In this document: positions 31,455 through 48,627 of the stretch, piece after piece
Layout of the letters: each line of letters begins with the position of its first letter
How positions within the stretch are numbered: the first letter of the stretch is position 1
Origin: Polynucleobacter sp.
GTDB lineage: Bacteria; Pseudomonadota; Gammaproteobacteria; Burkholderiales; Burkholderiaceae
Assembly: GCF_040400325.1 (NCBI RefSeq)
Contig: NZ_JBBAQK010000010.1
Location: 7,698 to 71,697, forward strand
Direction: 5' to 3'
DNA: 64,000 bases
Translations under genes and position numbers: made by a program
Notes under the pieces: model-generated
Told to the model about the DNA's origin: nothing
Databases searched by the model: none
The model's input: only the letters and a program-made list of their open reading frames with translations

Positions 31455-33164
31455 TTATTTCTTAGCAGCTGCAGAAGATGGGTTTAAGTTTGTTAAACGC
31501 CCACTTTCAGTACCCGCAGTTTCATCAATAACAGCATTGATGAGGGCAGGTTTACCAGCAGCGATTGCTTCTGTTAACGCTACTTCTAATTCTGCTGGAG
31601 TAGTTACGTAGTAACCCACTCCACCAAATGCTTCGATCATCTTGTCGTAACGAGCATTTTTTACGAATACGGTCGGAGCAACATCAGCGCCGCCGGTTGG
31701 GTTCACGTCGGTGCCACGGTATACGCCGTTATTATTGAAAACAACTGTAGTGATTGGCAAGTTGTAACGGCAAATAGTTTCTAATTCCATGCCGCTAAAG
31801 CCAAATGCGCTATCGCCCTCGACTGCAACGGTTGGCAAGTTACTGATCACTGAAGCGCCAATCGCATAGCCCATACCAATACCCATAATGCCCCAGGTAC
31901 CGGAGTCAAAACGCTTACGCGGCTTATACATATTCACAATCGCACGGCAGAAGTCCAGCGTGTTTGCGCCCTCGTTTACTAAGTTCACATCAGGGTTCTT
32001 CTTAATCACATCACGAATCGCACGTAATGCCCCATGGAAGTTCATTGGACTTACGTCTTTGGCAAGTGTCTCTGCCATCTTCGCCATGTTCTTGTCTTTT
32101 TTCTCATTGATTGCTGAAATCCATTCAACGCTTGGCTTGGGAACAGAAGCAATGCCTTTTAACAATTCACCAACGCATGAACCAATGTCACCAATCAATG
32201 GTGCGGAAATTTGTACGTTGCTATCAACTTCATTGGCCTGAATATCGATCTGAATAAATTTCTTAGGCTCCTTGCCCCAGGTCTTGCCCTTTCCATGAGC
32301 CAATAACCAGTTCAAGCGCGCACCAATTAATAAGACTGTGTCAGCCTCTGCTAAAACAAACGAGCGGGCTGGGGATGCAGTTTGAGGATGATCATCTGGC
32401 AATAAACCTTTTGCCATCGACATTGGCAAGTAAGGAATACCAGACTTCTCGATCAAGTCACGGATCTCTTTATCAGCCTGCGCATAAGCGGCGCCTTTGC
32501 CCAAGAGAATCAATGGACGTTTAGCGCCTTTGAGTACATCTAATGCACGCGCTACAGCATCAGCTGCTGGAATCTGGCGCGGCACGGGATCGATTACTTT
32601 GAAAATAGACTTCTTTGCCTCTTCGGCTGGCATAGTTTGGGCTAATAACTGTGCAGGCAGGTCTAAATACACTCCGCCTGGACGACCTGAAACCGCAGCG
32701 CGAATGGCACGTGCAAAACCAATACCGATATCTTCAATGTGATTAATACGATAAGCTGCTTTACAATATGGCTTAGCAGCATTGAGCTGATCCATCTCTT
32801 CATAGTCGCCCTGTTGTAAGTCAACAATTTCACGCTCACTTGAGCCACTAATCAAAATCATCGGGAAACAATTCACAGTTGCATTGGCAAGTGCTGTTAA
32901 ACCATTTAAGAATCCTGGTGCAGAAACCGTCATACAAATACCAGGCTTTTGAGTCATGAAGCCTGCAATTGCTGCGGCATTACCTGCGTGTTGCTCATGA
33001 CGGAAACCAATAAAGCGTATTCCTTCAGCTTGAGCCAAACGACACAAGTCAGTTATTGGAATGCCAACCAGACCAAAAATAGTGTTGAGATCATTCGCTT
33101 TCAAAGCATCGATGACCAGATGAAAGCCATCAGTTAATTGTGTGTTTTGAGTATCTGTTGTCAT
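31455..33164 (-). CDS. oxc: Oxalyl-CoA decarboxylase (ThDP-dependent)
   Basis: [50 protein letters not shown]...NNNG, GTESG. Confidence 0.96.
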
Positions 33165-33289
33165 AGAAATTTTTTATACATTACAAAGGCTTATGCAGGG
33201 ACTAAATCCCTGTAGTGTCGCTTTCGCTATTGGTCTTCCATTAAGTTATTTATTGCATGCTGAGTTCAACCCAGCTTAGGCAGAGATGA

Positions 33290-33332
33290 ATATTAGGCTT
33301 GAGGAAGAGGATGATCATTGACTTCGGTCAAT
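33290..33332 (-). promoter_or_regulatory. Class II Crp/Fnr-type promoter of oxc: ATTGAC-N4-GTCAAT box (33317-33332) and -10 TAATAT (33295-33290)
   Basis: The palindrome resembles the FNR consensus TTGAT-N4-ATCAA. If the TANNNT hexamer is at -12..-7, the box centre falls at -41.5. Confidence 0.7.
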
Positions 33333-33366
33333 TTCCCCCAAATCCAGCGCCCCAAAGGGAAATTGT

Positions 33367-33984
33367 TTAGATAAAAAGCTCTTTATGCTTCGTTTTAAGG
33401 CGGCTCAAAGTCTCTGGTGAGAGGTTGAGGTAGGCTGCCAGCTCCTTTTTAGGGAGGAGCTCAAACAAGTTCTCATATTTTCGTAAGAAACGCTCTACCC
33501 GACCTGGAGCATCTAGCATATGCAAGGTAATGGTGTGAGCCATAATTTCACTCATCAGGCGCATTACCTCAAGCTCAAAAGTCTCCTTCAGAAGCTTATG
33601 CTCTTCCAGAAATTCAGCCCATTTTTTCATAGGCATGCGAGCCACACGGGTTTTGTTAACGCATGCAATACTGTAGGGGGCAGCCGTTTTAAGGCGCCAA
33701 GCAGCATAGCTAGTTTCGATATCTTTTTCGATAGCAAAACGCAAGATCATCTCTTTAGCGTCAGGACTAGAGACAATGCGCTTGAGAATACCGTCTAGAA
33801 CAAAGTATTGCTCCATCTGATGATCCCCTTGATGGAGCAATATTTCGGATTTTTTGAGATCTGATATCTCTAAAAGGCGCTCTAAATCAGCCATAACAGC
33901 CTGATCCAAGCTTTTAAGCACCGAATTTTGGCTCAACTGCAAGCGAATCAGGTTTTTTTCTGGGTGCCTATCTAATGCGGTCAT
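33367..33984 (-). CDS. Crp/Fnr-family transcriptional regulator
   Basis: cNMP-like domain (LLHQGD..YFVLDGILK) and HTH ELAAYLNLSPETLSRL (FNR-like ExxSR). No N-terminal Cys cluster. Confidence 0.9.
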   Translation of the reverse strand: MTALDRHPEKNLIRLQLSQNSVLKSLDQAVMADLERLLEISDLKKSEILLHQGDHQMEQYFVLDGILKRIVSSPDAKEMILRFAIEKDIETSYAAWRLKTAAPYSIACVNKTRVARMPMKKWAEFLEEHKLLKETFELEVMRLMSEIMAHTITLHMLDAPGRVERFLRKYENLFELLPKKELAAYLNLSPETLSRLKTKHKELFI

Positions 33985-34038
33985 GAATCCTTAATCCTAG
34001 ACCCAGCATTGTAGTCTTTTTAAGAATCCTAATTAAAA

Positions 34039-34053
34039 TATTGCATCGCAACA
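34039..34053. promoter_or_regulatory. TATTGC-ATC-GCAACA dyad (PhaR-like box) upstream of the Crp/Fnr gene
   Basis: TTGC-N3-GCAA dyad. A near-identical copy is at 53535-53549. Confidence 0.45.
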
Positions 34054-34079
34054 AAAGATACCTAATTCTCCTTAGATTC

Positions 34080-34646
34080 TCAAATATTGCGATTCATGTT
34101 GGGGCAGTTAATGAGCTCAAACTCGCCAAAGCCAATAACGTACTCAGGCCAGTCATTTGCATCTTTTAAGACCTTCTGACCACTTTTCATTAAAAAATGA
34201 AGTGCTCGTATGACTCCTGCATGAGTAATCAAAATAATCTCATCAATACCCTCAAGCTCTAACAGCATTGATTTAATTCTATGAATAAACCCCTGAACAC
34301 ACTCCTCGCCACCAAAAAAATGGCTCGGGAACGATTGAACCCATGCATCAATTTCAGCCTTTGGAATATCGCTCCAAAGTACCCCTTCCCAAACGCCGAA
34401 ATTAAACTCGTTTAATCTGCAGTCACTTTGAACAATTGCGTTAGGTCTGAGTATCTGAATCGCCTTCGCTAGGGATAGAGATCGAATCAGGCCTGAAGAA
34501 TAAATTGGCAAATTCTCAGGCAACTGACCCGATAGAGATTGAGCCAAGGAATCCAATTGAGATCTGTCGATCTCTAGATCAAGTTGCCCATAGCAGACAC
34601 CACTAGCCACTAAAGGTTTTGGATGACGGACTACCCAAATCTTCAT
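34080..34646 (-). CDS. cobC: Histidine phosphatase family, putative alpha-ribazole phosphatase
   Basis: VVRH, YSSGLIRS, LNEFNFGVWEG, ITHAGVIR. Last gene of the cob operon. Confidence 0.75.
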   Translation of the reverse strand: MKIWVVRHPKPLVASGVCYGQLDLEIDRSQLDSLAQSLSGQLPENLPIYSSGLIRSLSLAKAIQILRPNAIVQSDCRLNEFNFGVWEGVLWSDIPKAEIDAWVQSFPSHFFGGEECVQGFIHRIKSMLLELEGIDEIILITHAGVIRALHFLMKSGQKVLKDANDWPEYVIGFGEFELINCPNMNRNI

Positions 34647-35455
34647 AAGGCAATGAATGAGGCTATAAGAAGTAGACCCAAATAAAAACCGACTTCTGTA
34701 ATTTGTTGAATAGCACCTAAAGCATCTCCATTGATCCCACCAAGCCTGCTATAAAAAATTCTAAGTAACAACAATAAAACAACTATGCTTGCAAAAATAC
34801 CACCTGCCCACACCCAGCTAGGGTAACAAAGATAAATAATTAAAAATAAAGTCGCGGTCCATAGAGCACCAACTGTAAAAATAGTGAGACGCGGACCGGC
34901 AAACATTGCTTTTGATTTAGAAGAAGATATATCCCCAGAGTAAGGAAGATATGTCATGGCAACTAATACTAAAAATCTGGAGAAGATACTTGCTGCAACA
35001 ATAGCAACAAATGTCAGTGATAAGCTGATCTGTGCAAGGGCTGACAAGAAGATAATTTTGCCCAAAATAGTGCAAATCAGCGCAACCGCTCCATAGGTGC
35101 CAACCCTAGAGTCCTTCATAATCTCAAGCGCTTTTTCTCGTGTTGTAGCGCCGCCCAGTCCATCAACTAAATCTGCTAGCCCATCCTCGTGCAAAGCCCC
35201 GGTAATTAATATTGAAGCAACAATTGCCATGAAGACAGAAACCCAATAATTAGCAACTTGATTTGGTAAAAGTATCATGAAAGTGATGAATACTATTGCT
35301 GTCAATAAACCTACCAGAGATCCGATTAAGGGTAAGTAAGCAGAAGATCGAGCCAAACGCTCCTCACTAAATCCTGCCCAAAGAGCCAATGTCCCGGTAA
35401 CCGGAATTCGAGTAAAGAACTGTATGGCTAATAAAAAGTGACGAAGTGGGTTCAT
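34643..35455 (-). CDS. cobS: Adenosylcobinamide-GDP ribazoletransferase
   Basis: QFFTRIP, TGALHEDGLADLVDG, IMKDSRVGTYG, GGINGDALGA. Confidence 0.93.
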   Translation of the reverse strand: MNPLRHFLLAIQFFTRIPVTGTLALWAGFSEERLARSSAYLPLIGSLVGLLTAIVFITFMILLPNQVANYWVSVFMAIVASILITGALHEDGLADLVDGLGGATTREKALEIMKDSRVGTYGAVALICTILGKIIFLSALAQISLSLTFVAIVAASIFSRFLVLVAMTYLPYSGDISSSKSKAMFAGPRLTIFTVGALWTATLFLIIYLCYPSWVWAGGIFASIVVLLLLLRIFYSRLGGINGDALGAIQQITEVGFYLGLLLIASFIAL

Positions 35456-36489
35456 GATTCGCGAGAAACACCGGCGGACTCAAAACTAGCCATCTCATTA
35501 AGGATTAAACTAGCAGACTGGATCAGCGGCCAAGCAATCATTGCGCCAGACCCCTCTCCCAGCCTAAGCTCTAAATCAATTAACGGCTTAGCTTTCAGAA
35601 TGTCAAGCATCAAGGCATGACCCTTCTCACCTGATTGATGGGTAAAAATGCAATAGTCCAATACAGCATGGTCAATCTTAGAGGCCACCAACACGGCAGA
35701 GCTTACGATAAATCCATCCACTAGTACTACCCTTTTCTCAGCAGCTGCTTTGAGAATTGAGCCGACCATAGTAGCTATCTCAAAACCACCTAATGCCGCC
35801 AAGACCTCAATTGGATCTTTTAACTGACAATGATGTTCAAGAGCTTCACAGAGTACCTGCGTTTTTCGCTTTATAGCCTCCGCATTCAACCCTGTCCCAG
35901 CACCAGTACACAAAGCAACATCTATATTTTCAAGTTTTGAAAATAGCAGGGAAGCCGCGGAGGTATTGCCAATCCCCATTTCTCCAAGTATCAGCACATT
36001 ACCAGGTAACTCCGCAACTACTTGCATACCACTTTCAATACATTGAATTGCCTGAACATATGACATCGCAGAATGCTTAGATGAATCTGCGGTGCCTTTG
36101 CCCACTTTTCGAATCAAAAGTTTCTCTCTAGGCTCAAAGTCGTGATTCACCCCGCAATCAACCACTGTCATATGAATTTGATGCTGACGTGCCAAAACAC
36201 TTACAGCCGCTCCATCAGCCAAAAAATTCTCAACCATCTGCCATGTCACATCACTTGGAAATGCAGATACTCCACGAGCAACAATTCCATGATCACCCGC
36301 ATAGACAACCAGCTGAGGGTCAATTAATTTTGGCTCTAATGTATGTTGAATTTGCCCAATCCTAATAGCTAATTCCTCAAGACGCCCTAAAGATCCAACA
36401 GGCTTCGTTTTATTGTCTATCTTTGCCTGCAGTGTAATTAATAATTCAGCATCTTTACAAGGTGTAATTTTTGGTAATGTAATGTTCAT
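35452..36489 (-). CDS. cobT: Nicotinate-nucleotide--dimethylbenzimidazole phosphoribosyltransferase
   Basis: KTKPVGSLGRLE, GDHG, GEMGIGNT, LGGFEIA, LRLGEGSG. Confidence 0.94.
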   Translation of the reverse strand: MNITLPKITPCKDAELLITLQAKIDNKTKPVGSLGRLEELAIRIGQIQHTLEPKLIDPQLVVYAGDHGIVARGVSAFPSDVTWQMVENFLADGAAVSVLARQHQIHMTVVDCGVNHDFEPREKLLIRKVGKGTADSSKHSAMSYVQAIQCIESGMQVVAELPGNVLILGEMGIGNTSAASLLFSKLENIDVALCTGAGTGLNAEAIKRKTQVLCEALEHHCQLKDPIEVLAALGGFEIATMVGSILKAAAEKRVVLVDGFIVSSAVLVASKIDHAVLDYCIFTHQSGEKGHALMLDILKAKPLIDLELRLGEGSGAMIAWPLIQSASLILNEMASFESAGVSRES

Positions 36490-36495
36490 CAGATC

Positions 36496-37956
36496 CTACT
36501 GGACAAGGGTTTGGAAATAACCGGGGTCAACCGTAATACTTTGCTGCAGATGCAATGCCAGGTTATTAAAGACTGCTTCTAAGGGGGTGGATTCACTACT
36601 AAATAAAGCTTGAATGACATTTTCATTTTCAAATAAGCCATGTAAATAAATCCCTAAAATATTTCCCTGAGAGTTGATCCAAGCACAATCAGGTAATAAC
36701 TCAATTGCAGTATTGGACACGCCATTAATCTCTATTATTTCCGTTTTGCCATGATGAATTTCATAGCCAGAAATATCAAGAAAAGATAAGGCCATCCAAA
36801 GTCCAGGTACAGAACCAAACCTTATTTCAGATTTTTTTACGAGCTTATCCTGTTCGAAGCGAGTTTTTATTGGGAGTAATTGAACTCCCTCCCCCGTGCC
36901 ATCTATACAGTAGGGATCCTCCAATAAGTAGCCCAACATCTGTAGGCCGCCGCAGATTCCTAAAATAGATTTTCCTGCACTAGCATGAGCAAGAATACGC
37001 TTATCAATCTGTTGATTTTTTAACCAACTTAAATCTGAGCTCGTATGCTTTGAGCCTGGCAGGATAATCAAATCAACATCCTGTATATCGGATGGACTCT
37101 TGACCCAAGATAAATTTATATTTGACATATTTTTCAATGCCTGAAATTCATCTAGATTACTTATATGGGGATAAACAACAATAGCAATACTAAAGGTTGC
37201 GTTGTTCCTAGCAATTAAATTTGCATCGAACACACCATCCTCCTCAGGTAATCCGTGATCAGGCAACATAGGTACAACCGCTATAACCGGAACCCCACAT
37301 AATTCGCTTAATTTCTCAGGTCCTGGCGATAGTAACTTAGCGTCACCCCTAAATTTATTTAACAGAAAACCTGAAATAAGGGATTGATTCTCTTCTCCAA
37401 GTAACATCCAGGTTCCATAAAGATGGGCAAATGCTCCGCCGCGATCTATATCTGTGACTATCAAGCAGCGTGCACCTACATGGCGCGCAACTCTCATATT
37501 CACAATATCGCTAGACATCAAATTAATTTCAGCGGGTGATCCGGCTCCCTCAATAACGACAATATCGTTTCTTTCAACTAACCAGTCTAATGAGGCCTGA
37601 ATCTCAGGCCAGACTTTTTCTGATCTCTCCCGCCATGGAACTTTTGAGAGTTCTTGGTTTACCTTACCTAATAAAATGACCTGACTTTTATTGTCAGCCT
37701 CAGGCTTAAGAAGAACAGGATTCATTTGCACAATGGGCTCTACATTTGCAGCCAATGCCTGGAAATATTGAGCAGATCCAATCTCTCCCTGATGAATTCC
37801 GATGCCAACTACACGAGCATTGTTACTCATATTCTGCGCTTTAAAAGGCGCAACTTTATACCCAAGCTGCACATATATCCGACACAATGCTGTGGCAATC
37901 CAGCTTTTTCCAGCTCCGCTTGAGGTGCCTAAGACCATAATGCACTTGGCTGTCAT
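36496..37956 (-). CDS. cobQ: Cobyric acid synthase
   Basis: GTSSGAGKS, FKAQNMSNN, EGAGSPAEINL, DIDRGG, GICGGLQMLG, YLHGLF. Confidence 0.94.
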   Translation of the reverse strand: MTAKCIMVLGTSSGAGKSWIATALCRIYVQLGYKVAPFKAQNMSNNARVVGIGIHQGEIGSAQYFQALAANVEPIVQMNPVLLKPEADNKSQVILLGKVNQELSKVPWRERSEKVWPEIQASLDWLVERNDIVVIEGAGSPAEINLMSSDIVNMRVARHVGARCLIVTDIDRGGAFAHLYGTWMLLGEENQSLISGFLLNKFRGDAKLLSPGPEKLSELCGVPVIAVVPMLPDHGLPEEDGVFDANLIARNNATFSIAIVVYPHISNLDEFQALKNMSNINLSWVKSPSDIQDVDLIILPGSKHTSSDLSWLKNQQIDKRILAHASAGKSILGICGGLQMLGYLLEDPYCIDGTGEGVQLLPIKTRFEQDKLVKKSEIRFGSVPGLWMALSFLDISGYEIHHGKTEIIEINGVSNTAIELLPDCAWINSQGNILGIYLHGLFENENVIQALFSSESTPLEAVFNNLALHLQQSITVDPGYFQTLVQ

Positions 37957-38972
37957 TCTTTTCCAATCGATATGACTGCATCTAAAAATTTTGACTGCGT
38001 TGCAGGTGACATAACAGCCATGCGGAAATGATCAGCCAAGCCAAAAGAGCTAGTATCTCGTAACTTAATAGCGTGACGTCTTAAGTGCGACTGAAATTCA
38101 AATAAATTTGTCCTCTGTGGATTGACGCAAAAGAAATTGCTAACACTATGCAATGGTAACCAGCCAATCTGCTTGCATACCTCAATCTGCCTGACCTTCC
38201 AGTCACGCAAAATATCCAGAGATTGATTTAGCCAGTCTTGAGATCGACTATCCGCCCATATAGATAACATTCCAACTCCATGAGCACCTAAGACCCATGA
38301 GCTAGCCATAGAATTTAGCTCTTGAATTAATTTCTGTGAATTAGTGGGGCCGATAATATATGCACCCCTAATTCCCGTTATACCTAGCGCCTTATTAGGT
38401 GACCACATCTGCCATACCAAATCTAATTCGGACTGATTTAAAGCTAAATGCCCCTCCAGTCTCAATGGCTCATACGCAAGATCTAAAACTGCAATTTGCT
38501 CGGACCTCAAGGAGGCGACAAGATTGTTAATTCCCTCTATGGATCGCCCAAGTGGACTTGATGGATCACAAAGCCAAACTAAATCTGCTTCCATAATATT
38601 TTTGGTACTGACAAACTGCCATGTGTCTGCTGCATTCTGGTAATCCCCATAGCAATATTCTGGAAACCAAACTATTGGGGGCAAATTCGATTCATCCTGT
38701 AAAGATTTTCTTGCAACATAAGCAGTCACTCGATAAATGAACTCACTTGCACTTCCCGCAATCAATATTCGCTCTGAATCAACTTGGTGCTTAGTTGCTA
38801 AACATTGTCGTAGTTTGACGTATTCAGGATCAGGATAATATCGAAAGCTTGTTTGCTGGATTGCGTTCAATACGAAATGCGGGGCACCCACAATATTTGC
38901 ATTACTAGAAAAATCATGGGCGGGTACCCCTGCACGATCGGGCCCTCCGTGAATGCGCTTAGAGGGCACCAT
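37953..38972 (-). CDS. cobD: L-threonine-O-3-phosphate decarboxylase (PLP class I/II)
   Basis: HGG, DFSSNAN, YPDP, AGSASEFI, DLAYEP, SPNKALG. Position in the cob operon. Confidence 0.8.
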   Translation of the reverse strand: MVPSKRIHGGPDRAGVPAHDFSSNANIVGAPHFVLNAIQQTSFRYYPDPEYVKLRQCLATKHQVDSERILIAGSASEFIYRVTAYVARKSLQDESNLPPIVWFPEYCYGDYQNAADTWQFVSTKNIMEADLVWLCDPSSPLGRSIEGINNLVASLRSEQIAVLDLAYEPLRLEGHLALNQSELDLVWQMWSPNKALGITGIRGAYIIGPTNSQKLIQELNSMASSWVLGAHGVGMLSIWADSRSQDWLNQSLDILRDWKVRQIEVCKQIGWLPLHSVSNFFCVNPQRTNLFEFQSHLRRHAIKLRDTSSFGLADHFRMAVMSPATQSKFLDAVISIGKE

Positions 38973-38982
38973 GTGATCAAGA

Positions 38983-39957
38983 TTATTCAAAAAGAATCCC
39001 AATTAATAATAGGCCGCAAAGTAAAGAAAGAAATATGATAATTTTGTCACCAATGCGACAGGCCCCTTGAATATCATCAGCATTGGGCACCCTACCTTGA
39101 GGATTTAATTCATAAATCCCAGGCTTACTTAACTTGAGACCTAAAACCAATGCCATAGCGCCCATAGGCCATCCACCATTTGGTGATGGAGTCTTTCTTG
39201 ATTCAGACAGCAATGCCCGAAAAAAAGATACTCTGCCGATTAAAAAAATCAATAAGGCCGTCAAAATTGCAGGAATCCACGACAAAATATCATCGACTTT
39301 TGCAGCAAATTTTCCAAACCACTCCCAATAAAAACCGTTTTTTGATGTTCTGTATCCCCACATAGCATCAGCAGTATTTGCGAAGCGATAGAGCGCGGCT
39401 GCTGGCAAGCCGCCAATAGCAAACCAAAATAATGGCGCAATAACAGAGTCATTTAAGTTCTCGGAAAGAGTTTCAATGGCACTCTCTCGAACCTGAGTAT
39501 CCGTTAAGGATTTAACATTACGACTCACCAACCGACTAATCCGCTCCCTACCTTGATCCAAGGATTGATCCAAGGCAAAAGAAACAGCTAACACTTCATT
39601 CCTTAACATGCGCCAGGAAAGCAGAGTACTCAAAAGGACGCCCGTTAAAAAGCTATGTAGATAGAGATTAAAAGACTCGAATATCGATTCAAAGAAGACT
39701 GCAATAGAGATGGTAATTGTTACGCCTAGTATCCATAGTAATGTGCCCTTAAGTAACTGCCAATATGATCCTCTGGCAAATTTTTCAGCATAAATAGGTG
39801 CGTAATGTGATGCGGCCCAATTTAAAAAAATTCCCATGCCAATTACTGGATGAAGATAATTTGGAGGCTCGCCGAAAAACCAATCTACTGCCAATGCAAT
39901 CAACATTGATAGTGCAATAAATTGGATGAAAGATTGATCCATATGATTAATCAACAA
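38983..39957 (-). CDS. cbiB: Adenosylcobinamide-phosphate synthase
   Basis: GEPP..LHPV, LVSR, IETLSENLNDSVIAPLF, YRFANTADAMWGY, SPNGGWP. Confidence 0.93.
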   Translation of the reverse strand: MLINHMDQSFIQFIALSMLIALAVDWFFGEPPNYLHPVIGMGIFLNWAASHYAPIYAEKFARGSYWQLLKGTLLWILGVTITISIAVFFESIFESFNLYLHSFLTGVLLSTLLSWRMLRNEVLAVSFALDQSLDQGRERISRLVSRNVKSLTDTQVRESAIETLSENLNDSVIAPLFWFAIGGLPAAALYRFANTADAMWGYRTSKNGFYWEWFGKFAAKVDDILSWIPAILTALLIFLIGRVSFFRALLSESRKTPSPNGGWPMGAMALVLGLKLSKPGIYELNPQGRVPNADDIQGACRIGDKIIIFLSLLCGLLLIGILFE

Positions 39958-39974
39958 ATAATTTTTTATTATTC

Positions 39975-40544
39975 TTAATCTTCGATTCCTCGTTGTGCGG
40001 GTATACCTGCATTAAATGCATGCTTAATTTTTGCCATTTCAGTCACCGTATCTGCGATATCAATAATTTCTTGAGGGCACCTTCTTCCAGTAAGGCAGAC
40101 ATGAACCTCTTTTGGGCGATCTTTTAAAGTTTTTAACACCTCATTCAAGTCTAGCCACCCATAAATGAGTGGGTAGGTAATCTCATCGAGCACAACCAAA
40201 AAATAATCCCCTGAAAGGATCGCTAGTTTGGCCTTCTCCCACCCATCCCTGGCTAATTGGCCTGAATTATCTAGGTCCTTACTCTTCCAACTAAAACCAT
40301 CTCCTAGTCCTTCGATGGGAATCCCAATAGCCTCGAAGGCTCGATGCTCCCCAAATCTTGCAGTAGGAACTTTCATAAACTGATAAACCTTTACTTTCTT
40401 CCCACGGCCATGAGCACGAATAGACAAACCTAAAGCTGCAGTACTTTTACCTTTTCCATCACCAGTATTAACAATGATTAGCCCCCGTCGCTCTCCCTCA
40501 GCCTTGTCATATGGCTTCTCAGTAGGTGGAATTTCAATTTCCAT
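39975..40544 (-). CDS. cobO: Cob(I)yrinic acid a,c-diamide adenosyltransferase
   Basis: VNTGDGKGKSTAALG, VVLDEI, LTGR, KHAFNAGIPAQRGIED. Confidence 0.94.
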   Translation of the reverse strand: MEIEIPPTEKPYDKAEGERRGLIIVNTGDGKGKSTAALGLSIRAHGRGKKVKVYQFMKVPTARFGEHRAFEAIGIPIEGLGDGFSWKSKDLDNSGQLARDGWEKAKLAILSGDYFLVVLDEITYPLIYGWLDLNEVLKTLKDRPKEVHVCLTGRRCPQEIIDIADTVTEMAKIKHAFNAGIPAQRGIED

Positions 40545-40577
40545 AGATTGCTCTTTTCCTTGGCTATGTAGCTAGCA

Positions 40578-41357
40578 TTAATTAAATAAAACGACGAAAT
40601 CATCCATGAGTGGATAAATCTTTATCCTTTGATCGAATACCTTTTCAATATCGCGATGCAAGCCCAAATCTTGACTTGAATTCTGATTAATTACCCTCCC
40701 TTGATCCATAATGACAATCTCATCTGAATGAAGTGCAAAAGAAATTTCATGCAGGACAGTAATTATTGTTTTATTGCTATTTACTAGTCCTTTGATTAAA
40801 TTAAGACAATCTGCTTGATGAGGTGGATCAAGATTATTCAAGGGCTCATCCATCATTAAAATCTGGGCATCAACAGCCAAGGCCCGTGCTATCAAAACTC
40901 TCTGACGCTCTCCCCCGGAGAGCTCATCTACCGATCTATTAATCCAACCATCTGCTTGTACCTGCCTTAGGGCATCCAATACAGCTAAATGATCCTGTTG
41001 AGAGGGGCTGCCGATCCATGACTGATGAGGAAGCCTACCAAGCATCACTAAATCATATACAGACATATCTCCATTGATGGCTTCACTCTGACCTAACCAT
41101 GAGATCAGTTTTGCCCTCGATTTTGCTGATAACTGACGCATGTCCTGTTCAAATATGCTTGTCTGAAAGGATCCCTGAATGAGGCCTGCAAAGACACGCA
41201 ATAAAGTTGATTTGCCTGCGCCATTAGGCCCAATAATCGATGTCCACTTGCCACTAGAGATCTTTAAGCTCACTTGATCGACTGCAGTAATTGCGCCTAA
41301 AAGTACAGAGACTTCTGAGACTTGAATAGCGGTACTTTGATTTGACGCAAGACTCAT
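40578..41357 (-). CDS. ABC transporter ATPase (BtuD/FecE-like)
   Basis: GPNGAGKST, LSGGERQRV, MDEP. Confidence 0.9.
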   Translation of the reverse strand: MSLASNQSTAIQVSEVSVLLGAITAVDQVSLKISSGKWTSIIGPNGAGKSTLLRVFAGLIQGSFQTSIFEQDMRQLSAKSRAKLISWLGQSEAINGDMSVYDLVMLGRLPHQSWIGSPSQQDHLAVLDALRQVQADGWINRSVDELSGGERQRVLIARALAVDAQILMMDEPLNNLDPPHQADCLNLIKGLVNSNKTIITVLHEISFALHSDEIVIMDQGRVINQNSSQDLGLHRDIEKVFDQRIKIYPLMDDFVVLFN

Positions 41358-42373
41358 TGAAATCCCCTTCTACCCTTTGCACCATACATTAACCAGAGCA
41401 AATATCCTCCGCCCAATAAGGCAGTCAAAACGCCCACAGGTAATTCTTGAGGGGCAATCAGATATCGGGACAATACATCTGCTGCAAGCAGCACTAAACC
41501 ACCCATCATCGCAGAAAGCAATAGTAATCTTGAATGATTAACACGAATCAGAGAACGTACGAGATGAGGTGAAACCAATCCCACAAATGCTACTAGGCCA
41601 ACCTGCGCAACTGCAGCTCCCGTAGCTAAAGAAATTACTCCAATTAATGCGATTCGAGTAAGGTCTAATTTCAATCCCAAACTGACTGCCGTGATTTCTC
41701 CTAAAATAAGGCCGTCCAACACTCTACTCAACAGAATTCCGGTAATCAAGGATATAAGCAGAGCACCAAACATCACAATACAAGCATTCCAGCCCACAAA
41801 TCCTGTAGAGCCCAAAAGAAACGCCTGCATTGCCTGCAAAATTTCCGGCGACATCAACGTCACAATTGAACTCATTGCACCAAATATGACACCTACAATG
41901 ACTCCTGATAGGAGTAAGCGCAAGGAATTTTGTGCGCCTCTTGCTAGTATTAAAGTTAAAAGTACAGCAAGTACAGCGCCAATAAAGGCGGCACCTGTTA
42001 AACCAAGACGCACCAACCAATAAGTAGCAAAAGGACTGCCGCCAAAAAGCATCAGACTGATAGCAACTGCAAAAGAAGCTCCAGAAGCGCTACCCAACAA
42101 ATAAGGATCAGCTAAAGGATTTCTAAACAATCCCTGCGCTATCGCGCCTGTCAAGCCAAGTAGTGCGCCTGCTAAAAAAGCGCCTATGGACCTCGGTAGC
42201 CGAATTTGCCAAATTATTTTGGCCGCTACTGGATCAGAAAGTGAGTTAAATACTGTTTTCAGCCCCGTGCTTCCTACTGCAATACCACACAGAATCAACA
42301 CTAAGCCTAGACTAAATAATAGTAATAAACAAAGAAAAAATGCTCTGGAGGCTGACTTTCCATCACTAATCAT
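41354..42373 (-). CDS. ABC transporter permease (BtuC/FecCD-like)
   Basis: IRLPR, FRNPLADPYLLG, FVGLVSPH, ELPVG. Confidence 0.9.
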   Translation of the reverse strand: MISDGKSASRAFFLCLLLLFSLGLVLILCGIAVGSTGLKTVFNSLSDPVAAKIIWQIRLPRSIGAFLAGALLGLTGAIAQGLFRNPLADPYLLGSASGASFAVAISLMLFGGSPFATYWLVRLGLTGAAFIGAVLAVLLTLILARGAQNSLRLLLSGVIVGVIFGAMSSIVTLMSPEILQAMQAFLLGSTGFVGWNACIVMFGALLISLITGILLSRVLDGLILGEITAVSLGLKLDLTRIALIGVISLATGAAVAQVGLVAFVGLVSPHLVRSLIRVNHSRLLLLSAMMGGLVLLAADVLSRYLIAPQELPVGVLTALLGGGYLLWLMYGAKGRRGFQ

Positions 42374-43260
42374 CGTATGAATTTAAGAGAATTTTTCGTA
42401 GAAATTTTTTTACTGGACAAGCAATCCACTATTACCATTGCACCTTCAGCCATTCTTGGGCCAGGACGAATGATGACGTCTGCATCACTCTCCTTAAAAA
42501 TGCAAGTATTCCCTTTCTTTAGTGCATCCAGTTGAGACCATCCAGGGCGATCATTCATACCTATATAGTTTCGATCGCCCACCATAATCACATCGGGATT
42601 TAAACTCACTACAAATTCAGGGCTAATTTTTGGGAATGGCCCTAAGGAGGCTGGAATAACATTCGACAACCCTAAACGCCCCAAAGTCTCGCCAATAAAT
42701 GAAGTAGGCCCTGCTGCATAAGGTGCACTATTTACTTCGAAGTAAACCTTTGCTTTCACAGCGTCAGGCGGTAATAATTTAGCCGCTTTCTCAAGGCCAA
42801 AATCAATATCATCCCAAATTTTTTGTGCCTCTCTTTTCGGAACTCCTAAAATAAGAGCTAACTTTTCAATTGTTCTTTTTACATCTGAATAGCTTTTTGA
42901 ATCTATAGAGAAAACTGGGACACCCAGGCTTTTAAGTCGCTCACTTGCCCTAGGAGACGATCCTACTAAAACCAAGTCTGGATTGAGGGAAATAATTGCC
43001 TCAACATTTGGATCCAAACCACCACCTAATTTTGGCAGACTTAAAATACTTTTAGGCCAATTAGAATAGCGATCCACCCCAATCAACTGAGAACACTTCC
43101 CTAAGATACACACTGTCTCTGTAATTGATGGAAGCATACTCACAATTCTTTTTGGTGGCTCTTTAAATTGCACCACAATGCCATGATCATCAACCACCTC
43201 ATACGCAAAAGATGGGTTAGTAAAAAGCAGTGCGAGGCAGAAGTAGATAAATTTCATCAT
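42370..43260 (-). CDS. Periplasmic corrinoid-binding protein (BtuF-like)
   Basis: Signal peptide, PKRIVSMLPSITE, NVEAIISLNPDLV, RPGPR. Confidence 0.88.
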   Translation of the reverse strand: MMKFIYFCLALLFTNPSFAYEVVDDHGIVVQFKEPPKRIVSMLPSITETVCILGKCSQLIGVDRYSNWPKSILSLPKLGGGLDPNVEAIISLNPDLVLVGSSPRASERLKSLGVPVFSIDSKSYSDVKRTIEKLALILGVPKREAQKIWDDIDFGLEKAAKLLPPDAVKAKVYFEVNSAPYAAGPTSFIGETLGRLGLSNVIPASLGPFPKISPEFVVSLNPDVIMVGDRNYIGMNDRPGWSQLDALKKGNTCIFKESDADVIIRPGPRMAEGAMVIVDCLSSKKISTKNSLKFIR

Positions 43261-43835
43261 ACGCCCTTAATCACTAAAGGCACTCCCGCAATCATGAGAG
43301 TAACTTCATCACAAATACGAGCAATTTTTTGATTCAATATCCCGAGCTCATCTACAAATTGTCGAATTTCACGACCCATTGGGATGACCCCCATACCAAT
43401 CTCATTGCTAACGAATATGATAGGACCTCGAGCGCTTTTTACTGCGCTAAGGAGATCATCAATTGCTGCTGAAGTACTCTCAAACTCTGCAGCAACTAAT
43501 TCTGAATGTGGCATCAGCAAATTTGTCAGCCATATAGTTAAGCAGTCAATCACAATCAAATGATTAACTGATGATTGTTCCCTAATAACTCTACCTAGAT
43601 CAGTCGGCTCCTCTATCAATAGCATAGTCGGAATTTTTTGAGCGCGATCATTTTGATGTCTTTTAATTTTTAAATGCATTTCTTCATCTAGTGCTTGGGC
43701 AGTAGCAACAAGAACAGCAGTCCTTTTATTTGATTGCGACAGCCATTCTTTCGTTAGTAATTCAGCGTGTGCTGACTTTCCACTTTTCTGACCACCCAGA
43801 ATAAGATGGGCTCTGCTTATTTCGCTGGAACTCAT
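43257..43835 (-). CDS. cobU: Bifunctional adenosylcobinamide kinase/guanylyltransferase
   Basis: LGGQKSGKS, RHQNDR, IDCLTIWLTN, VSNEIGMG, LGILNQ. Confidence 0.92.
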   Translation of the reverse strand: MSSSEISRAHLILGGQKSGKSAHAELLTKEWLSQSNKRTAVLVATAQALDEEMHLKIKRHQNDRAQKIPTMLLIEEPTDLGRVIREQSSVNHLIVIDCLTIWLTNLLMPHSELVAAEFESTSAAIDDLLSAVKSARGPIIFVSNEIGMGVIPMGREIRQFVDELGILNQKIARICDEVTLMIAGVPLVIKGV

Positions 43836-45163
43836 AGACTATTCTTCGCAAGAAAAAGAGATGCTGTAGCTTCATAATTTGATGAAAACCAGGCATGGAA
43901 ATAGCTCGCCTTAATCGGGCCGAGCTGATACAAAGCCTCCCCTGACGAAGCGCTACTTATTTTTTTAGAGGCACAGATTTTGACGGGCAAGTCTGTTTTA
44001 CATATAGAGTAATGAAAAGTATGGCCACGCAATATCCCTTCATCGAACTCAAAAAATTGAGCCCCTAAACCACCTAATTTTTGTTGCATTAAAACCGACC
44101 CACCCAAAAATCCCCACATGGGATGACTAATGCCGTCAGCCGAAACAATCTCCTGAAATAAACACATCATTCCTCCACATTCGGCCCATATTGGAATATC
44201 TTGATTGAGTAGATTTTCAATGCTTTTTCGCATGGCAACATTGCCATAAAGAGCATCCGTGTAAAGCTCTGGATATCCTCCGGGAAGCCATAAAGCATCG
44301 CACTTAGGGACTTGGGCATCTTCCATAGGAGAAAAAAATACGATCTCAGCACCTAATAATCTCAAAGCCTCTAAATTGGCCTCATAAATAAAGCAAAATG
44401 CTTTATCTCTTGCAATAGCAATTGTTTTTCCTAGCAACAGCGGCTTAATAGAAATAAGTTCATTTGGTAGTTCAAATTCTACATTCCACTTACTAAATGC
44501 AGAGATATTCATTTTTGCTAGCTCAGTGTTTTCTAGCGCATCAGCAAAAGCTTCAATCCTCTGCAAACCATCCTCCAACTCATCGGCTATAACTAAACCA
44601 AGGTGCCGCTCAGGCATTTCTAGATCAGCATTACGAAACACGGCGCCATTCCAATCGTCTTCATCACGAATTGCAGACCTTAGCATTAGGGCGTGACCCT
44701 CAGTCGCAACACGATTTGCTAATACCCCCGCCCAAGGTAATCCTTCAACATAAGTCTTAAGACCGTGAGCTAGGGCACCAAATGTGCCTGCCATAGAGCT
44801 TGCATCGATTACTGCAAGAATAGAGATTTTAAAATGAAGGGCAAGTTCTGCAGCACTTGGTTCACCATCATACAAACCCATTGCACCTTCAATCAAAATT
44901 AGATCAGCATCTTGAGCCGCTTTATATAGTCGACTTTTGCAATATTCAGATCCTGTCATCCACATATCTAACTGATAGACTGGATGGTTACTAGCCATCT
45001 GCAGCCAATAAGGATCAATGAAATCAGGCCCATATTTAAAGACCCGAATTTTCATCCCCTTACGCGCAAGCATCCGCGCAATTCCACAAGTAATAGTCGT
45101 TTTCCCCTGACCAGAAGCAGGTGCAGAAATAAAAATTGCTGGACATGCCTGAGTAGCGGACAT
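43832..45163 (-). CDS. cobB: Cobyrinate a,c-diamide synthase
   Basis: SGQGKTT, GPDFIDP, IEGAMGLYDG, PERHLGL, LPGGYPE, AECGGMM, HYS. Confidence 0.92.
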   Translation of the reverse strand: MSATQACPAIFISAPASGQGKTTITCGIARMLARKGMKIRVFKYGPDFIDPYWLQMASNHPVYQLDMWMTGSEYCKSRLYKAAQDADLILIEGAMGLYDGEPSAAELALHFKISILAVIDASSMAGTFGALAHGLKTYVEGLPWAGVLANRVATEGHALMLRSAIRDEDDWNGAVFRNADLEMPERHLGLVIADELEDGLQRIEAFADALENTELAKMNISAFSKWNVEFELPNELISIKPLLLGKTIAIARDKAFCFIYEANLEALRLLGAEIVFFSPMEDAQVPKCDALWLPGGYPELYTDALYGNVAMRKSIENLLNQDIPIWAECGGMMCLFQEIVSADGISHPMWGFLGGSVLMQQKLGGLGAQFFEFDEGILRGHTFHYSICKTDLPVKICASKKISSASSGEALYQLGPIKASYFHAWFSSNYEATASLFLAKNSL

Positions 45164-45169
45164 ATGAAT

Positions 45170-47077
45170 TTATTTTCCTGAGTATCTTAGCCCAACAAAT
45201 ACATTTGAGCCCGGAGTTAAGTATCCATAAGACAATTGATATTGGGCATTAAATACATTGTTCCATTTTGCAAATACCGACCATTCAGGCGTGAGCTCAT
45301 GACTGGCATATAAGTTCATCAACGCATATCCGCCCATTGCCTGAGTATTAGATGCATTTGCATAACGGACTCCTGCAAGCGTTAGATTTACACCTAAATC
45401 AGATTTAACAAAACGATAGTCTGCTCCGATATTTGCAGTATTTTTTGCCCTATATGGCAACTGTAACCCTGTCCCCGCATTAATTGCGTTCATTAAATCA
45501 TAGGAGGTTCGGAGAGTAAGCGCCTCAAGGCGGGCATTTGCGCCAAAAGAACCGCCAGTAATACGAGTTTTTGCAAAATTAGTTGGGCAATATCCGCTTG
45601 ATTGATAATTACATGGCAATGCAATAATTAAATTTTGTATTTGATTTTGATAAACAACTGCATGAAGATCGTAGATCTTTCCTTCGTAATGAAGCCCTCC
45701 CTCAACGTTTTTATTGGTTTCAGGCTGAACGTTTGGATTTCCATATCCAGGGTAGTACAAATCATTAAAAGTTGGGGCGCGGAATCCCGTCCCGTAATTG
45801 ATATTTGCTCTTAGTTCCTTAGTGAAAAAATAACCATAAGCAACACTACCAGTAGTTTGTGAACCATAATTTGAAATAACATCGTTTCTTAGTGCAGCTG
45901 TCAGTAAATTAACGCCGCGTTTGAGCTGATATGAGGCCGCCACGGAATCAGTGGTTCTACTAGTATATAAGCTCGTGTTATTTGATAAACCAGTTACGCT
46001 CTTTGAGTAATTTGCGTTGACATACTGTATTCGACGCTCTCCCAAGACTTGAAGAATGTCATCCCCTAATCGAATATCGTTTTGCCATAAAAAGTCATTT
46101 TGCGGGGTATTAATTGGGTCATTGGCAGCGCTTGTAATGCTTTGTGCATTATTTGTTGAGTTTGAAATCTGCAACAGACTTTGCCAATTTTTCGTAATCT
46201 GATTTTTGGAGTAAATAGATCCAACAAACAAGTTTCCTACTTGCTGATTCATTTCGGGAACTCTATAAACTCCGCTGTAACCTGGGTATTGATAGGAATC
46301 ACGTGTTGCTAAAACTTTGAGCCCGAACTCCTGACCAACTCCCCAATCCTGAGAGAGCTGACTCATAAATCCTTCACGCGTATAAGCAGATGAGCTATTA
46401 GGATAACGCTTATATGATGGATTATTACTTGCAACAGTATTAAATCCAGCTGAATTCTCCTGGCTCACTCCTAATGAATATCTTATTTTGTTGGCATCAT
46501 CAGTCGAGCCTGAAATACTCGCATTGTTAATGGTGGTTCCATAACTACCGTATCCTGATGATGCTGAGAATTGGGTTGGGCCCTCACCTTTTTTAGTAAA
46601 AATTTGGATAACGCCACCCAGTGCATCGGCACCATAGAAAGTGCTTTGTGGGCCAAAAATGATTTCAATATGATCAATGAGCGCTACTGGGATAGTGCTC
46701 CAAACTGCACCACCCAAAGTTGAGGATTCAGTGCGCACTCCGTCAATCAGCACAAGCGCCTGGTTATTGGCTGAGCCTCTTAAGTAGACGCTAGCCAATC
46801 CACCGCTTCCTCCATAGGTTTGAATTTGTACACCTCTTTGTTGCTGAAGTAACTCTGGCAAGCTTGATTGCACAGCACGTGCTATCTCCTCAGGACCTAT
46901 ATAGCCATAGTCAGCAAGTACATCATTTGAAGATACCCCATACCGTGTAGCAGTCACGATAATTGGCTTAACAGCATCAGCAATATTATCAACTGACACT
47001 GATTGTGCAATTACTACCTCAGAAATGGTTAGCCCAAGGCAGGATAAAAGGGCAAGTACTCTTATGTAAGTTTTCAT
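45170..47077 (-). CDS. btuB: TonB-dependent corrinoid receptor
   Basis: Signal peptide, IVTATR TonB box, LVLIDG, IEIIFGPQSTFYGADALGGVIQIFTK, GFRAPTFNDLY. Downstream of a B12 riboswitch. Start at ATG 47077. Confidence 0.9.
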   Translation of the reverse strand: MKTYIRVLALLSCLGLTISEVVIAQSVSVDNIADAVKPIIVTATRYGVSSNDVLADYGYIGPEEIARAVQSSLPELLQQQRGVQIQTYGGSGGLASVYLRGSANNQALVLIDGVRTESSTLGGAVWSTIPVALIDHIEIIFGPQSTFYGADALGGVIQIFTKKGEGPTQFSASSGYGSYGTTINNASISGSTDDANKIRYSLGVSQENSAGFNTVASNNPSYKRYPNSSSAYTREGFMSQLSQDWGVGQEFGLKVLATRDSYQYPGYSGVYRVPEMNQQVGNLFVGSIYSKNQITKNWQSLLQISNSTNNAQSITSAANDPINTPQNDFLWQNDIRLGDDILQVLGERRIQYVNANYSKSVTGLSNNTSLYTSRTTDSVAASYQLKRGVNLLTAALRNDVISNYGSQTTGSVAYGYFFTKELRANINYGTGFRAPTFNDLYYPGYGNPNVQPETNKNVEGGLHYEGKIYDLHAVVYQNQIQNLIIALPCNYQSSGYCPTNFAKTRITGGSFGANARLEALTLRTSYDLMNAINAGTGLQLPYRAKNTANIGADYRFVKSDLGVNLTLAGVRYANASNTQAMGGYALMNLYASHELTPEWSVFAKWNNVFNAQYQLSYGYLTPGSNVFVGLRYSGK

Positions 47078-47224
47078 GATAAATCCAGGTAAGGCCGCCA
47101 CCCAACTCTCCCCGTTGGATCGCTTAAAAGAAAACAGAATTGAGCCTAGATGTGTCAATTCGTGCCTGCAATACAGCCTCAGGCATCTCACTGGCACACG
47201 AAAATCCTCGTTCGTATTTCCAAC

Positions 47225-47420
47225 CTGTTGAAGCCGGTATCCGGGCTAATGAGTATCAGAATTTAACCTTCCCAAACATGACTGTTCAGTGGTACTGAAA
47301 TTCCTGCACTAAAAGTGCACTCACTTACCGTTGCGGGGACAGCATGGTGACTACTTTTTGGAGCTCCAATTTCCCGTTTAACTATCTTTCAAAAATGGAA
47401 AGATGAGCACTATCAACTCT
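47225..47420 (-). ncRNA. Cobalamin (AdoCbl) riboswitch
   Basis: Minus strand TTAAACGGGAA, CCCCGCAACGGTAAG, CCACTG...GGGAAGG, and B12 box AGCCCGGATACCGGC. Upstream of btuB. Boundaries approximate. Confidence 0.93.
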
Positions 47421-47458
47421 GTTAGTGTAACTTAAACGCTAATAAATGCGCCTTAAAA

Positions 47459-47719
47459 TTATGCGGGAGCCTCTAGACTCTTTTGCAGACGCACACACGT
47501 GGCATCGCAAAATGGCTGCTTAGACGTTTGTTTACAGCCGCAAAAATATACCTTTTTGCTCTCTAAAGCAGAGAATTTGACTGGCTGGAAGCCCATATCA
47601 ATATGGGAGTTATCGCAAAATGGTTGAGTCTGACTATTACCGCAAGCGCACCATTTGTAAACATTATGAGCATCAATTTCAGTCAGAAATGGGCCCAATT
47701 GAGCAATTTTTGCCTTCAC
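47459..47719 (-). CDS. CDGSH iron-sulfur domain protein (two CDGSH-type motifs)
   Basis: WCACGNSQTQPFCDNSH and FCGCKQTSKQPFCDAT. GTG start. Confidence 0.85.
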   Translation of the reverse strand: MKAKIAQLGPFLTEIDAHNVYKWCACGNSQTQPFCDNSHIDMGFQPVKFSALESKKVYFCGCKQTSKQPFCDATCVRLQKSLEAPA

Positions 47720-47816
47720 TATGCCCCTTGTATTCTATTTGACTGGCACATTATCCAGCTATTTTAATGAACTGTATAACTCAAGCGCGGGGTTCCACTC
47801 CTATGTTTTACAGGGC

Positions 47817-47822
47817 TACAAT
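47817..47822 (+). promoter_or_regulatory. Putative -10 hexamer TACAAT, 6 nt before ATG 47829 (leaderless candidate)
   Basis: TACAAT-accaag-ATG. Confidence 0.55.
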
Positions 47823-47828
47823 ACCAAG

Positions 47829-48116
47829 ATGAGCGAGCAAAACCAATTTTCCCTAGGTGATAACAGAGCTGACCTAGATGCAGTCAATGCATCTGTCAAA
47901 CGCTTATCCGAAAAAGTTCAGCTCATTACTGAAGCAGTTAAGGAACTTCATCAAAACCGCACCCAACTGCAAGGTAAAATTGAAGATGCGCAAAAACGCA
48001 TTCAACATATTTTGAGTCGTCTGCCCGATCAGGGTGATGGACGCCAGCTGAATTTACTGAATGAAGTAACTCCACCTAATACGCCAGAGGATGATAGTGA
48101 GCCAACAACGCATTGA
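47829..48116 (+). CDS. Coiled-coil protein upstream of zapA (ZapB-like by position and heptad pattern)
   Basis: LSEKVQLITEAVKELHQNRTQLQGKIEDAQKRIQHILSRLP. Overlaps zapA. Confidence 0.65.
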   Translation: MSEQNQFSLGDNRADLDAVNASVKRLSEKVQLITEAVKELHQNRTQLQGKIEDAQKRIQHILSRLPDQGDGRQLNLLNEVTPPNTPEDDSEPTTH

Positions 48117-48450
48117 AGTAACTCTCGCCGGCCAAAAGATTACCCTGTCTACTAGTACAGAACATGAGCCACTATTGCGTGCAGCTTGCGTTTTAGTTGA
48201 TGAACAAATTAAATTGGCGATTAATGGTGGCAATCGGAGTATAGAGCGCGCCAGTATGATGGCAGCACTAAAAATTGCAGGGGATCTGATTAAACTCCAA
48301 AGCACACCATCGCCATCCAGTGCGTCCTCTAACGCTAATAGCAACGAAGTTGCTCGCCTTCAAGCAGAAATTCATGCATTAGAAGATCAAGTAGATGGCT
48401 TGATGCAATCCCTTTCCCTGCCTGGTTCGCCAAGGCCAATAGTTCCTTGA
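48097..48450 (+). CDS. zapA: Cell division protein ZapA
   Basis: IEVTLAGQKITL...LLRAACVLVDEQI...ERASMMAALKIA. GTG 48097 has an AGAGG SD. Followed by 6S RNA. Confidence 0.85.
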   Translation: MSQQRIEVTLAGQKITLSTSTEHEPLLRAACVLVDEQIKLAINGGNRSIERASMMAALKIAGDLIKLQSTPSPSSASSNANSNEVARLQAEIHALEDQVDGLMQSLSLPGSPRPIVP

Positions 48451-48627
48451 ACCGATGCGCAAGCATCCGGAACGATCTTTACCTTGCGGGCGTGAGCGTT
48501 TCGAAGATTCACAGTGTCAGCCTCGAGCTGGTCACTCCCTGAGTCTCTTAATGCACCCAAAGCAGAGTAGCCGTTCCACCATGAACCTTAGGGTTCAGGA
48601 TGACGGCCTAGCGGCTAAGGCGGGGAA
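48414..48627 (+). ncRNA. ssrS: 6S RNA
   Basis: Terminal stem TTCCCTGCCT/AGGCGGGGAA. Conserved blocks GTTCGCCAAGGCC, CCTTGAACCGAT, TGAACCTTAGGGTTCAGG, GGCCTAGCGGC. Canonical position after zapA. Confidence 0.9.

Follow-up and report, generated by a model that had tools for sequence, protein, structure and literature searches.

Why should a bacterium that builds no corrin ring keep both corrin amidases, CobB and CobQ? The question is raised by a 13-gene corrinoid operon in a 64,000-nucleotide stretch of a Polynucleobacter sp. genome (contig NZ_JBBAQK010000010.1 of assembly GCF_040400325.1, positions 7,698 to 71,697). We call this whole stretch the window, and its numbering is used for the operon and its surroundings. 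An earlier note, made from the letters of the window, had described a salvage operon with both amidases and no ring-synthesis genes, and had proposed that the organism finishes very early, unamidated corrinoids taken from its environment. Our analysis indicates that this is probably a functional, riboswitch-repressed operon for corrinoid uptake and completion, of the already described "cobyrinate-to-adenosylcobalamin" type, in a cell that makes no corrin ring itself.

The operon consists of 13 open reading frames (ORFs) that run head to tail on the minus strand from 47077 to 34080, or from 47197 if the longest ORFs are taken. Their NCBIfam names give the order btuB, cobB, cobU, btuF, btuC, btuD, cobO, cbiB, cobD, cobQ, cobT, cobS, cobC. 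Because 4-nt overlaps link the genes at seven of the 12 junctions and no gap exceeds 33 nt, the natural reading is a single transcription unit under one riboswitch. The aptamer of that riboswitch, the sole cobalamin riboswitch recovered in a scan of the genome, ends 138 nt upstream of the btuB ATG on the same strand, and the expression platform extends to 47077. The gene set, the many 4-nt overlaps, the single riboswitch and the btuB start at 47077 had all been read from the window in the earlier note, and all stand: every ORF matches a named family, and the ATG at 47077 opens a signal-peptide-like N-terminus of BtuB. The longer GTG ORF from 47197 was rejected as an artefact that reads through the expression platform. 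Seven of the 13 proteins (CobB, CobU, CobO, CbiB, CobQ, CobT, and CobS) score above curated cut-offs. The features, in the direction of transcription, are as follows:

47215-47430, minus strand: cobalamin riboswitch aptamer (RF00174; 68.7 bits against a gathering score of 31.5, full model 1-189)
45170-47077, minus strand: btuB, TonB-dependent corrinoid outer-membrane receptor (best match TIGR01779 TonB-B12, 358 bits against a cut-off of 600; Plug and beta-barrel domains)
43832-45163, minus strand: cobB (NF002204, 398 bits against 254; CbiA nucleotide-binding and GATase_3 domains; P-loop SGQGKT, nucleophile motif AECGGMM)
43257-43835, minus strand: cobU (cobP), adenosylcobinamide kinase / cobinamide-phosphate guanylyltransferase (NF004469, 166 bits against 161)
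42370-43260, minus strand: btuF-like periplasmic corrinoid-binding protein (exceeds the cut-off for TroA-like; reaches 64 bits with the BtuF model NF002894, less than its cut-off; name taken from context)
41354-42373, minus strand: btuC-like ATP-binding cassette (ABC) permease (best match BtuC NF003001, 187 bits, below cut-off)
40578-41357, minus strand: btuD-like ABC ATPase (FecE/BtuD-type ATPases, all below cut-off; named from context)
39975-40544, minus strand: cobO (btuR/cobA), cob(I)yrinic acid a,c-diamide / corrinoid adenosyltransferase (NF004637, 216 bits against 185; TIGR00708, 198 against 168)
38983-39957, minus strand: cbiB, adenosylcobinamide-phosphate synthase (TIGR00380, 206 bits against 166)
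37953-39002, minus strand: cobD-type pyridoxal-phosphate enzyme, threonine-phosphate decarboxylase type (best match TIGR01140, 92 bits against a cut-off of 290; relatives also have it between cbiB and cobQ; translation probably begins further downstream than the TTG of the longest ORF)
36496-37956, minus strand: cobQ (cbiP), cobyric acid synthase (NF001989, 522 bits against 273; P-loop GTSSGAGKS, nucleophile motif GICGGLQM)
35452-36489, minus strand: cobT, nicotinate-nucleotide:dimethylbenzimidazole phosphoribosyltransferase (TIGR03160, 428 bits against 319)
34643-35455, minus strand: cobS, cobalamin(-5'-phosphate) synthase (TIGR00317, 117 bits against 110)
34080-34646, minus strand: cobC, alpha-ribazole phosphatase type (best match TIGR03162, 105 bits against a cut-off of 163; relatives also have it as the last gene of the operon)

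The absence of corrin-ring synthesis was examined in the whole assembly (2.24 Mb in 54 contigs, 92.8% complete; the window lies on contig C10). All precorrin methyltransferases are members of the TP-methylase family. The assembly holds a single TP-methylase domain (PF00590), in a gene for uroporphyrinogen-III methyltransferase (SUMT) that adjoins a sulfite/nitrite-reductase-type gene and a 123-aa CbiX-like chelatase. Because of this reductase neighbor, we read the pair as siroheme-type; the small CbiX was rejected as an entry to corrin synthesis, the later steps of which do not exist here. A CobN-like gene was likewise rejected as a cobaltochelatase, as it is BchH (2074 bits, NF009942), flanked by BchI and BchD in a photosynthesis cluster. 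CbiC/CobH (PF02570) has no match in the assembly, no BluB exceeds the cut-off (best match 33 bits against 150), and neither CbiZ nor any remnant of ring genes was found in the genome. The earlier observation that the window has no ring methyltransferase, cobaltochelatase, or BluB thus extends, by profile searches, to the rest of the assembly, and the ring-synthesis genes and bluB that the earlier note advised looking for elsewhere in the genome did not turn up. In the scheme of Shelton et al. (2018), whose markers for de novo cobamide producers are CbiL/CobI, CbiF/CobM, and CbiC/CobH, the genome is not that of a producer, its only PF00590 match being SUMT; with loop-assembly genes present and ring annotations absent, it belongs to their cobinamide salvager class.

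Congeners tell the same story. The closed, single-contig genome G346 carries the same 13 genes with no CbiC and one TP-methylase, and G340 and G342, two further bearers of the 13-gene operon, also lack CbiC and each have two TP-methylases. CbiC was found in none of five congeners with cob operons (one of them closed) and in none of ten other congeners sampled. As the closed genome and the other operon-bearing congeners also lack ring genes, the caveat of an incomplete assembly is largely removed. An RsmI-type TP-methylase present in congeners was not found in this assembly, from which part of the core genome must therefore be missing.

Both amidases look active and maintained by selection. CobB and CobQ are full length and retain their P-loop and catalytic-cysteine motifs. 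Judged from its sequence, CobB qualifies as a genuine family member, as it scores above the equivalog cut-off and has an ATP-binding P-loop and a GATase_3 domain with the nucleophile cysteine; its AECGG motif is common to the CobB of ring-making relatives. Between the ring-less congeners G346 and G342, the ratio of nonsynonymous to synonymous substitution rates (dN/dS) is 0.134 for cobB, at a dS of 0.37, and 0.084 for cobQ, both in the range of the other operon genes. With intact motifs and purifying selection in ring-less congeners, an inactive CobB is unlikely, and the statement in the earlier note that both amidases are kept is borne out. Furthermore, the presence of cbiB and cobD without CbiZ means that the substrate of CbiB must be either imported cobyric acid or the product of CobQ, so that input at the level of cobyric acid, at least, is implied.

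From gene content and pathway logic, a route can be proposed. Corrinoids would be imported by BtuB and the predicted BtuFCD transporter, free side-chain carboxylates would be converted to amides by CobB and CobQ, and CobO would adenosylate the product. CbiB, together with CobD, would then supply the aminopropanol-phosphate linker, and CobU, CobT, CobS, and CobC would assemble the nucleotide loop with a lower base that, since no BluB was found, would have to be imported. The amidases would thereby enable the use of corrinoids that still, or again, carry carboxylates; the candidate substrates are biosynthetic intermediates that escape from producers (cobyrinate, the diamide, and cobyric acid), corrinoids deamidated by hydrolysis, or both of these.

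Operons of this kind are known. Rodionov et al. (2019; Front Microbiol 10:1316, PMC6593275) defined an auxotroph variant, "Aba", with this gene set and with predicted salvage of B12, cobinamide, cobyrinate diamide, and cobyrinate; the gene set was taken to point to cobyrinic acid salvage. The operon matches that variant in having CobB and CobQ, then CbiB, CobD, CobU, CobT, CobS, CobC, and CobO, no ring synthesis, and a predicted BtuBCDF-type corrinoid transporter. However, Aba is an in silico class drawn from human-gut reference genomes (32 genomes, such as those of Bacteroides sartorii, Methyloversatilis universalis, and Pseudomonas stutzeri), whereas here all of the genes stand in one operon, in a small-genome member of a genus of ~2 Mb genomes. 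Janssen et al. (2010; PMC2864759) described in Cupriavidus metallidurans CH34 a 13-gene cbi/cob/btu operon (Rmet_2777-2789) with a cobalamin riboswitch at its far end, said to carry the full set of genes for adenosylcobalamin "from cobyrinic acid" and to be syntenic in all Cupriavidus and Ralstonia; ring genes were not found. As described there, it resembles our operon in the 13 genes, the riboswitch, and the inclusion of btuB/C/D/F. CH34 also has a bluB elsewhere, of which none was found here, and the CobB studied here groups with Comamonadaceae instead of its own family. Finally, the cobinamide salvage of E. coli and Salmonella (btuB, btuFCD, btuR, cobUST, cobC) shares with this operon a riboswitch-controlled BtuB, BtuFCD, adenosylation, and loop assembly by CobU, CobT, CobS, and CobC (established knowledge; Shelton et al. 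2018). In contrast, E. coli has no CobB, CobQ, CbiB, or CobD, starts at cobinamide, and has its genes scattered instead of in a single operon. The operon type, the lack of ring genes, and the proposal of cobyrinate salvage are thus already in print, the last as a genome-based prediction, and the literature that we searched contained no report that organisms of this genotype take up or use cobyrinate. New here are the rarity of the operon in its genus, the nesting of its CobB among Comamonadaceae, the receptor locus that it shares with operon-less congeners, and variants that keep cobQ without cbiB, cobB, or cobD.

The locus itself comes in three grades of cargo: receptor only, 10 genes, and 13 genes. 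In the window, the operon lies between a Crp-like regulator gene, which adjoins oxalate genes, and a 6S RNA gene (interval 34022-47888). In seven closed operon-less congeners, the same flanks are ~2.3-2.7 kb apart. Each of these seven intervals holds a TonB-receptor match, two of them near full length with 48% identity to BtuB and the rest partial with 29-35%; all three of the operon-less congeners scanned with Rfam have a cobalamin riboswitch there. An operon lies between these flanks in G346, G342, G275, and G328 as well, but there it runs the other way than in the window and in G340. The 10-gene form, read in G275 (6869-16674) and G328 (924-10708), has the order btuB-cobU-btuFCD-cobO-cobQ-cobT-cobS-cobC. 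There was no cbiB or cobB anywhere in the genomes of G275, G328, and G325, and no cobD in the two operons that were read. The cobQ of the 10-gene form is nevertheless intact, with a dN/dS of 0.125 between G275 and G328, similar to that of cobT and cobS. Between G346 (13 genes) and G275 (10 genes), BtuB, CobO, CobQ, CobT, CobS, and CobC are 97-100% identical, whereas CobU, BtuF, BtuC, and BtuD share only 55-75% identity, the btuF alleles being 68% identical. As judged from these identities, the two operons form a recombination mosaic in which a transporter cassette was apparently swapped along with the loss or gain of cobB.

Beyond the genus, the gene order of the operon is conserved, as far as contigs reach, in 80 loci, mostly of Comamonadaceae. 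Polaromonas, Rhodoferax, Hydrogenophaga, Hylemonella, Malikia, Curvibacter, and Tibeticola all have syntenic loci, with CobB identities of 51-59%, and four of the five named isolates tested among these bearers lack CbiC. The Comamonadaceae operons (Polaromonas, Rhodoferax, Hydrogenophaga, Hylemonella, and others) thus have the same order as ours but differ in host family and genome size. When four markers (CbiC, CobB, CobQ, CbiB) were cross-tabulated in 121 species of the family of Polaromonas aquatica (Comamonadaceae-type), the genotypes were distributed as follows:

CbiC, CobB, CobQ, and CbiB (producers): 14 species of 121
CobB, CobQ, and CbiB without CbiC (the genotype of this operon): 30 species of 121
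CobQ and CbiB only: 15 species of 121
CobQ only: 12 species of 121
Other partial sets, probably fragmentary assemblies: 9 species of 121
None of the four markers: 41 species of 121

The ring-less combination of CobB, CobQ, and CbiB is therefore the commonest cob genotype in the Comamonadaceae-type family sampled. In the family to which the operon's host belongs, CobB occurs in 64 of 151 genomes and CbiC in 52. The genomes inspected in this family that have CobB and lack CbiC (genera g4 and g29) were rejected as carriers of the same operon; their CobB is solitary among unrelated genes and not comparable. Two large (~6 Mb) own-family genomes, G071 (7350-8636) and G069 (6764-8038), have a solitary full-length CobB near an arginase and a hybrid histidine kinase, with no CbiC in the genome and no cob genes nearby.

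Within its genus, the operon is a rare accessory trait: cobS was found in only 8 of the 101 species sampled, this genome included, and CobB was absent from all ten other congeners sampled. In a CobB tree, the sequences of the genus, whose rows have a deviant amino-acid composition, form one clade (Shimodaira-Hasegawa-like approximate likelihood-ratio test, SH-aLRT, 98) nested in a clade of Rhodoferax-like Comamonadaceae (97), far from the CobB of their own family. This placement suggests an old horizontal acquisition of the operon; the GC content, 41-43% in the operon against 44-46% in the flanks, is only slightly lower and gives no signal of recent transfer. The module would thus derive from a Comamonadaceae-type lineage long ago and now occupy what appears to be the usual B12-receptor locus of the genus.

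Several points weigh against this overall explanation of a Comamonadaceae-derived uptake-and-completion operon. Six of the 13 proteins (BtuB, BtuF, BtuC, BtuD, CobD, CobC) fall below curated cut-offs; their best match is correct, and their names come partly from context. The assembly is only 93% complete. CobD would depend on a source of threonine phosphate, for which an L-threonine kinase (PduX/BluE type) is the candidate. The deviant composition of the genus rows could distort their placement in the CobB tree. Lastly, the literature that we searched yielded no experiment on the uptake or use of cobyrinate via any BtuB/BtuFCD system.

What, then, are the amidases for? The first possibility, and that of the earlier note, is that they are kept to import and finish very early, unamidated intermediates at the cobyrinate level that are released by producers. 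The gene set is exactly what cobyrinate onward requires, and the same proposal has been published for the Aba variant (PMC6593275) and for C. metallidurans (PMC2864759). In addition, the presence of cbiB and cobD and the lack of CbiZ imply that the input is cobyric acid or something earlier, purifying selection acts on cobB in ring-less genomes, and cobB occurs together with cbiB and cobD, as would be expected of a linear route that leads from cobyrinate via the diamide to cobyric acid. On the other hand, we found no evidence for free cobyrinate, a heptacarboxylate, in lake water or for its passage through BtuB/BtuFCD. It is also hard to explain in this way why cobQ is under selection in congeners without cbiB, cobB, or cobD, where the canonical product of CobQ could go no further, or why CobQ is the sole marker of the four in 12 of 121 related species. 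Because of these two observations, CobQ at least appears to have a role outside the linear pathway. The finishing of early intermediates as the reason for the two amidases is thus a tentative explanation, more readily accepted for CobB than for CobQ. As for the earlier claim, its foundations have held, as ring genes are absent, the amidases are intact and selected, and input at least at the cobyric-acid level is implied; its novelty has not, in view of Rodionov et al. (2019) and Janssen et al. (2010).

A second possibility is that the main task of CobB and CobQ is to restore the side-chain amides that imported cobinamides or cobamides have lost to hydrolysis in the environment, turning inactive or antagonistic carboxylic-acid forms into usable corrinoids. 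Hydrolytic deamidation of B12 is documented chemistry: its side-chain amides hydrolyze to inactive mono- to heptacarboxylic acids, so that re-amidation of damaged corrinoids is reasonable as a rival or an additional role. The 10-gene variant argues in this direction, as three congeners have no cbiB or cobB in the genome, the two operons read have no cobD, and yet cobQ is intact and constrained. So do the CobQ-only species of the related family and a Caulobacter control genome that matches CobQ and neither CbiB nor CobB. Against this, cobB always accompanies cbiB and cobD in the variants seen in the genus, and the linear pathway fits CobB better than it fits CobQ. Furthermore, the known CobB and CobQ enzymes are characterized on (hydrogeno)cobyrinic acid and adenosylcobyrinic acid a,c-diamide (Enzyme Commission descriptions), and they are not known to act on loop-bearing or linker-bearing corrinoids. 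Our literature search also returned no experimental evidence for corrinoid re-amidation. We therefore hold such repair as the main task of the two enzymes in this operon to be rather doubtful. The general form of the idea, that in ring-less salvagers the corrin amidases, CobQ above all, would serve to re-amidate hydrolyzed cobinamides and cobamides and not to finish early intermediates, seems unlikely on the comparative sequence data at hand.

The two remaining explanations fare much worse. That the amidases are useless leftovers of a decaying de novo pathway would agree with the suggestion of Shelton et al. (2018) that many incomplete pathways are currently being lost; it is, however, very improbable for full-length genes with intact motifs and dN/dS values of 0.13 (cobB) and 0.08 (cobQ), in a gene order that persists between lineages whose proteins share only 50-60% amino-acid identity and in a ring-less set found in 30 of 121 species of one family, with no ring-gene remnants. 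We give almost no credence to the idea that the organism is a de novo producer whose ring synthesis sits in the unassembled 7% of the genome: some sequence is indeed missing, as the completeness of 92.8% and the absent RsmI-type gene attest, but the ring pathway needs about ten genes, including at least five TP-methylases, none of which was found, and the three 13-gene congeners have at most two TP-methylases, the five congeners with cob operons no CbiC, and the ten others sampled none either.

From a biological perspective, the interest of the locus lies in this allelic series. In many bacteria unable to make the corrin ring, the role of CobB and CobQ is predicted from genomes, and the papers searched contained no test of that prediction; cbiA/cobB was reported by Shelton et al. 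(2018) in 46% of precursor salvagers, as against 2.6% of non-producers. A receptor-only form, a 10-gene form with cobQ alone, and a 13-gene form with both amidases, all at one locus, could decide between cross-feeding of precursors and repair of corrinoids in freshwater plankton. This series, together with cobQ-only variants that challenge a simple precursor-salvage reading, is what the present analysis adds to the published predictions.

The uptake-and-completion operon would serve a cell for which B12 is useful but probably not essential. Two of the B12-dependent enzymes that the earlier note advised looking for are present, namely, a methylmalonyl-CoA mutase with MeaB and a split MetH (354 + 917 aa); MetE is also encoded, which makes B12 probably dispensable and fits the accessory nature of the operon. 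A 1001-aa ORF (contig C12, 9176-10993) scores 400.4 bits against an NrdJ model with a cut-off of 399.95, and the same model also finds a match in E. coli; the ORF may encode either a B12-dependent reductase or a class I NrdA. A weak B12-binding match on contig C1 is a false lead, being IMP dehydrogenase. A 279-aa protein with a B12-binding domain lies inside the photosynthesis cluster; we read it as an AerR/PpaA-like regulator, and salvaged B12 may thus have another use in light-related regulation. Use of the vitamin would thus be facultative, through the mutase, the split MetH, and this putative regulator, with MetE as the other methionine synthase. The photosynthesis gene cluster occupies contig C3 from ~44855 to 71000 and includes BchH, BchI, BchD, and a CrtE-like prenyl synthase.

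Finally, the surroundings of the operon are those of the genus. On its promoter side, the 6S RNA gene (RF00013, 50.8 bits) lies at 48412-48630 on the plus strand, in a position conserved in congeners. At the other end, the oxalate module at 27339-34021 (oxc, frc genes, and the Crp-like regulator) has a collinear counterpart with ~80% nucleotide identity in five of the seven closed congeners, and most of it is matched, in two blocks, in the other two; the module thus seems to belong to the normal gene content of the genus and not to have been inserted.

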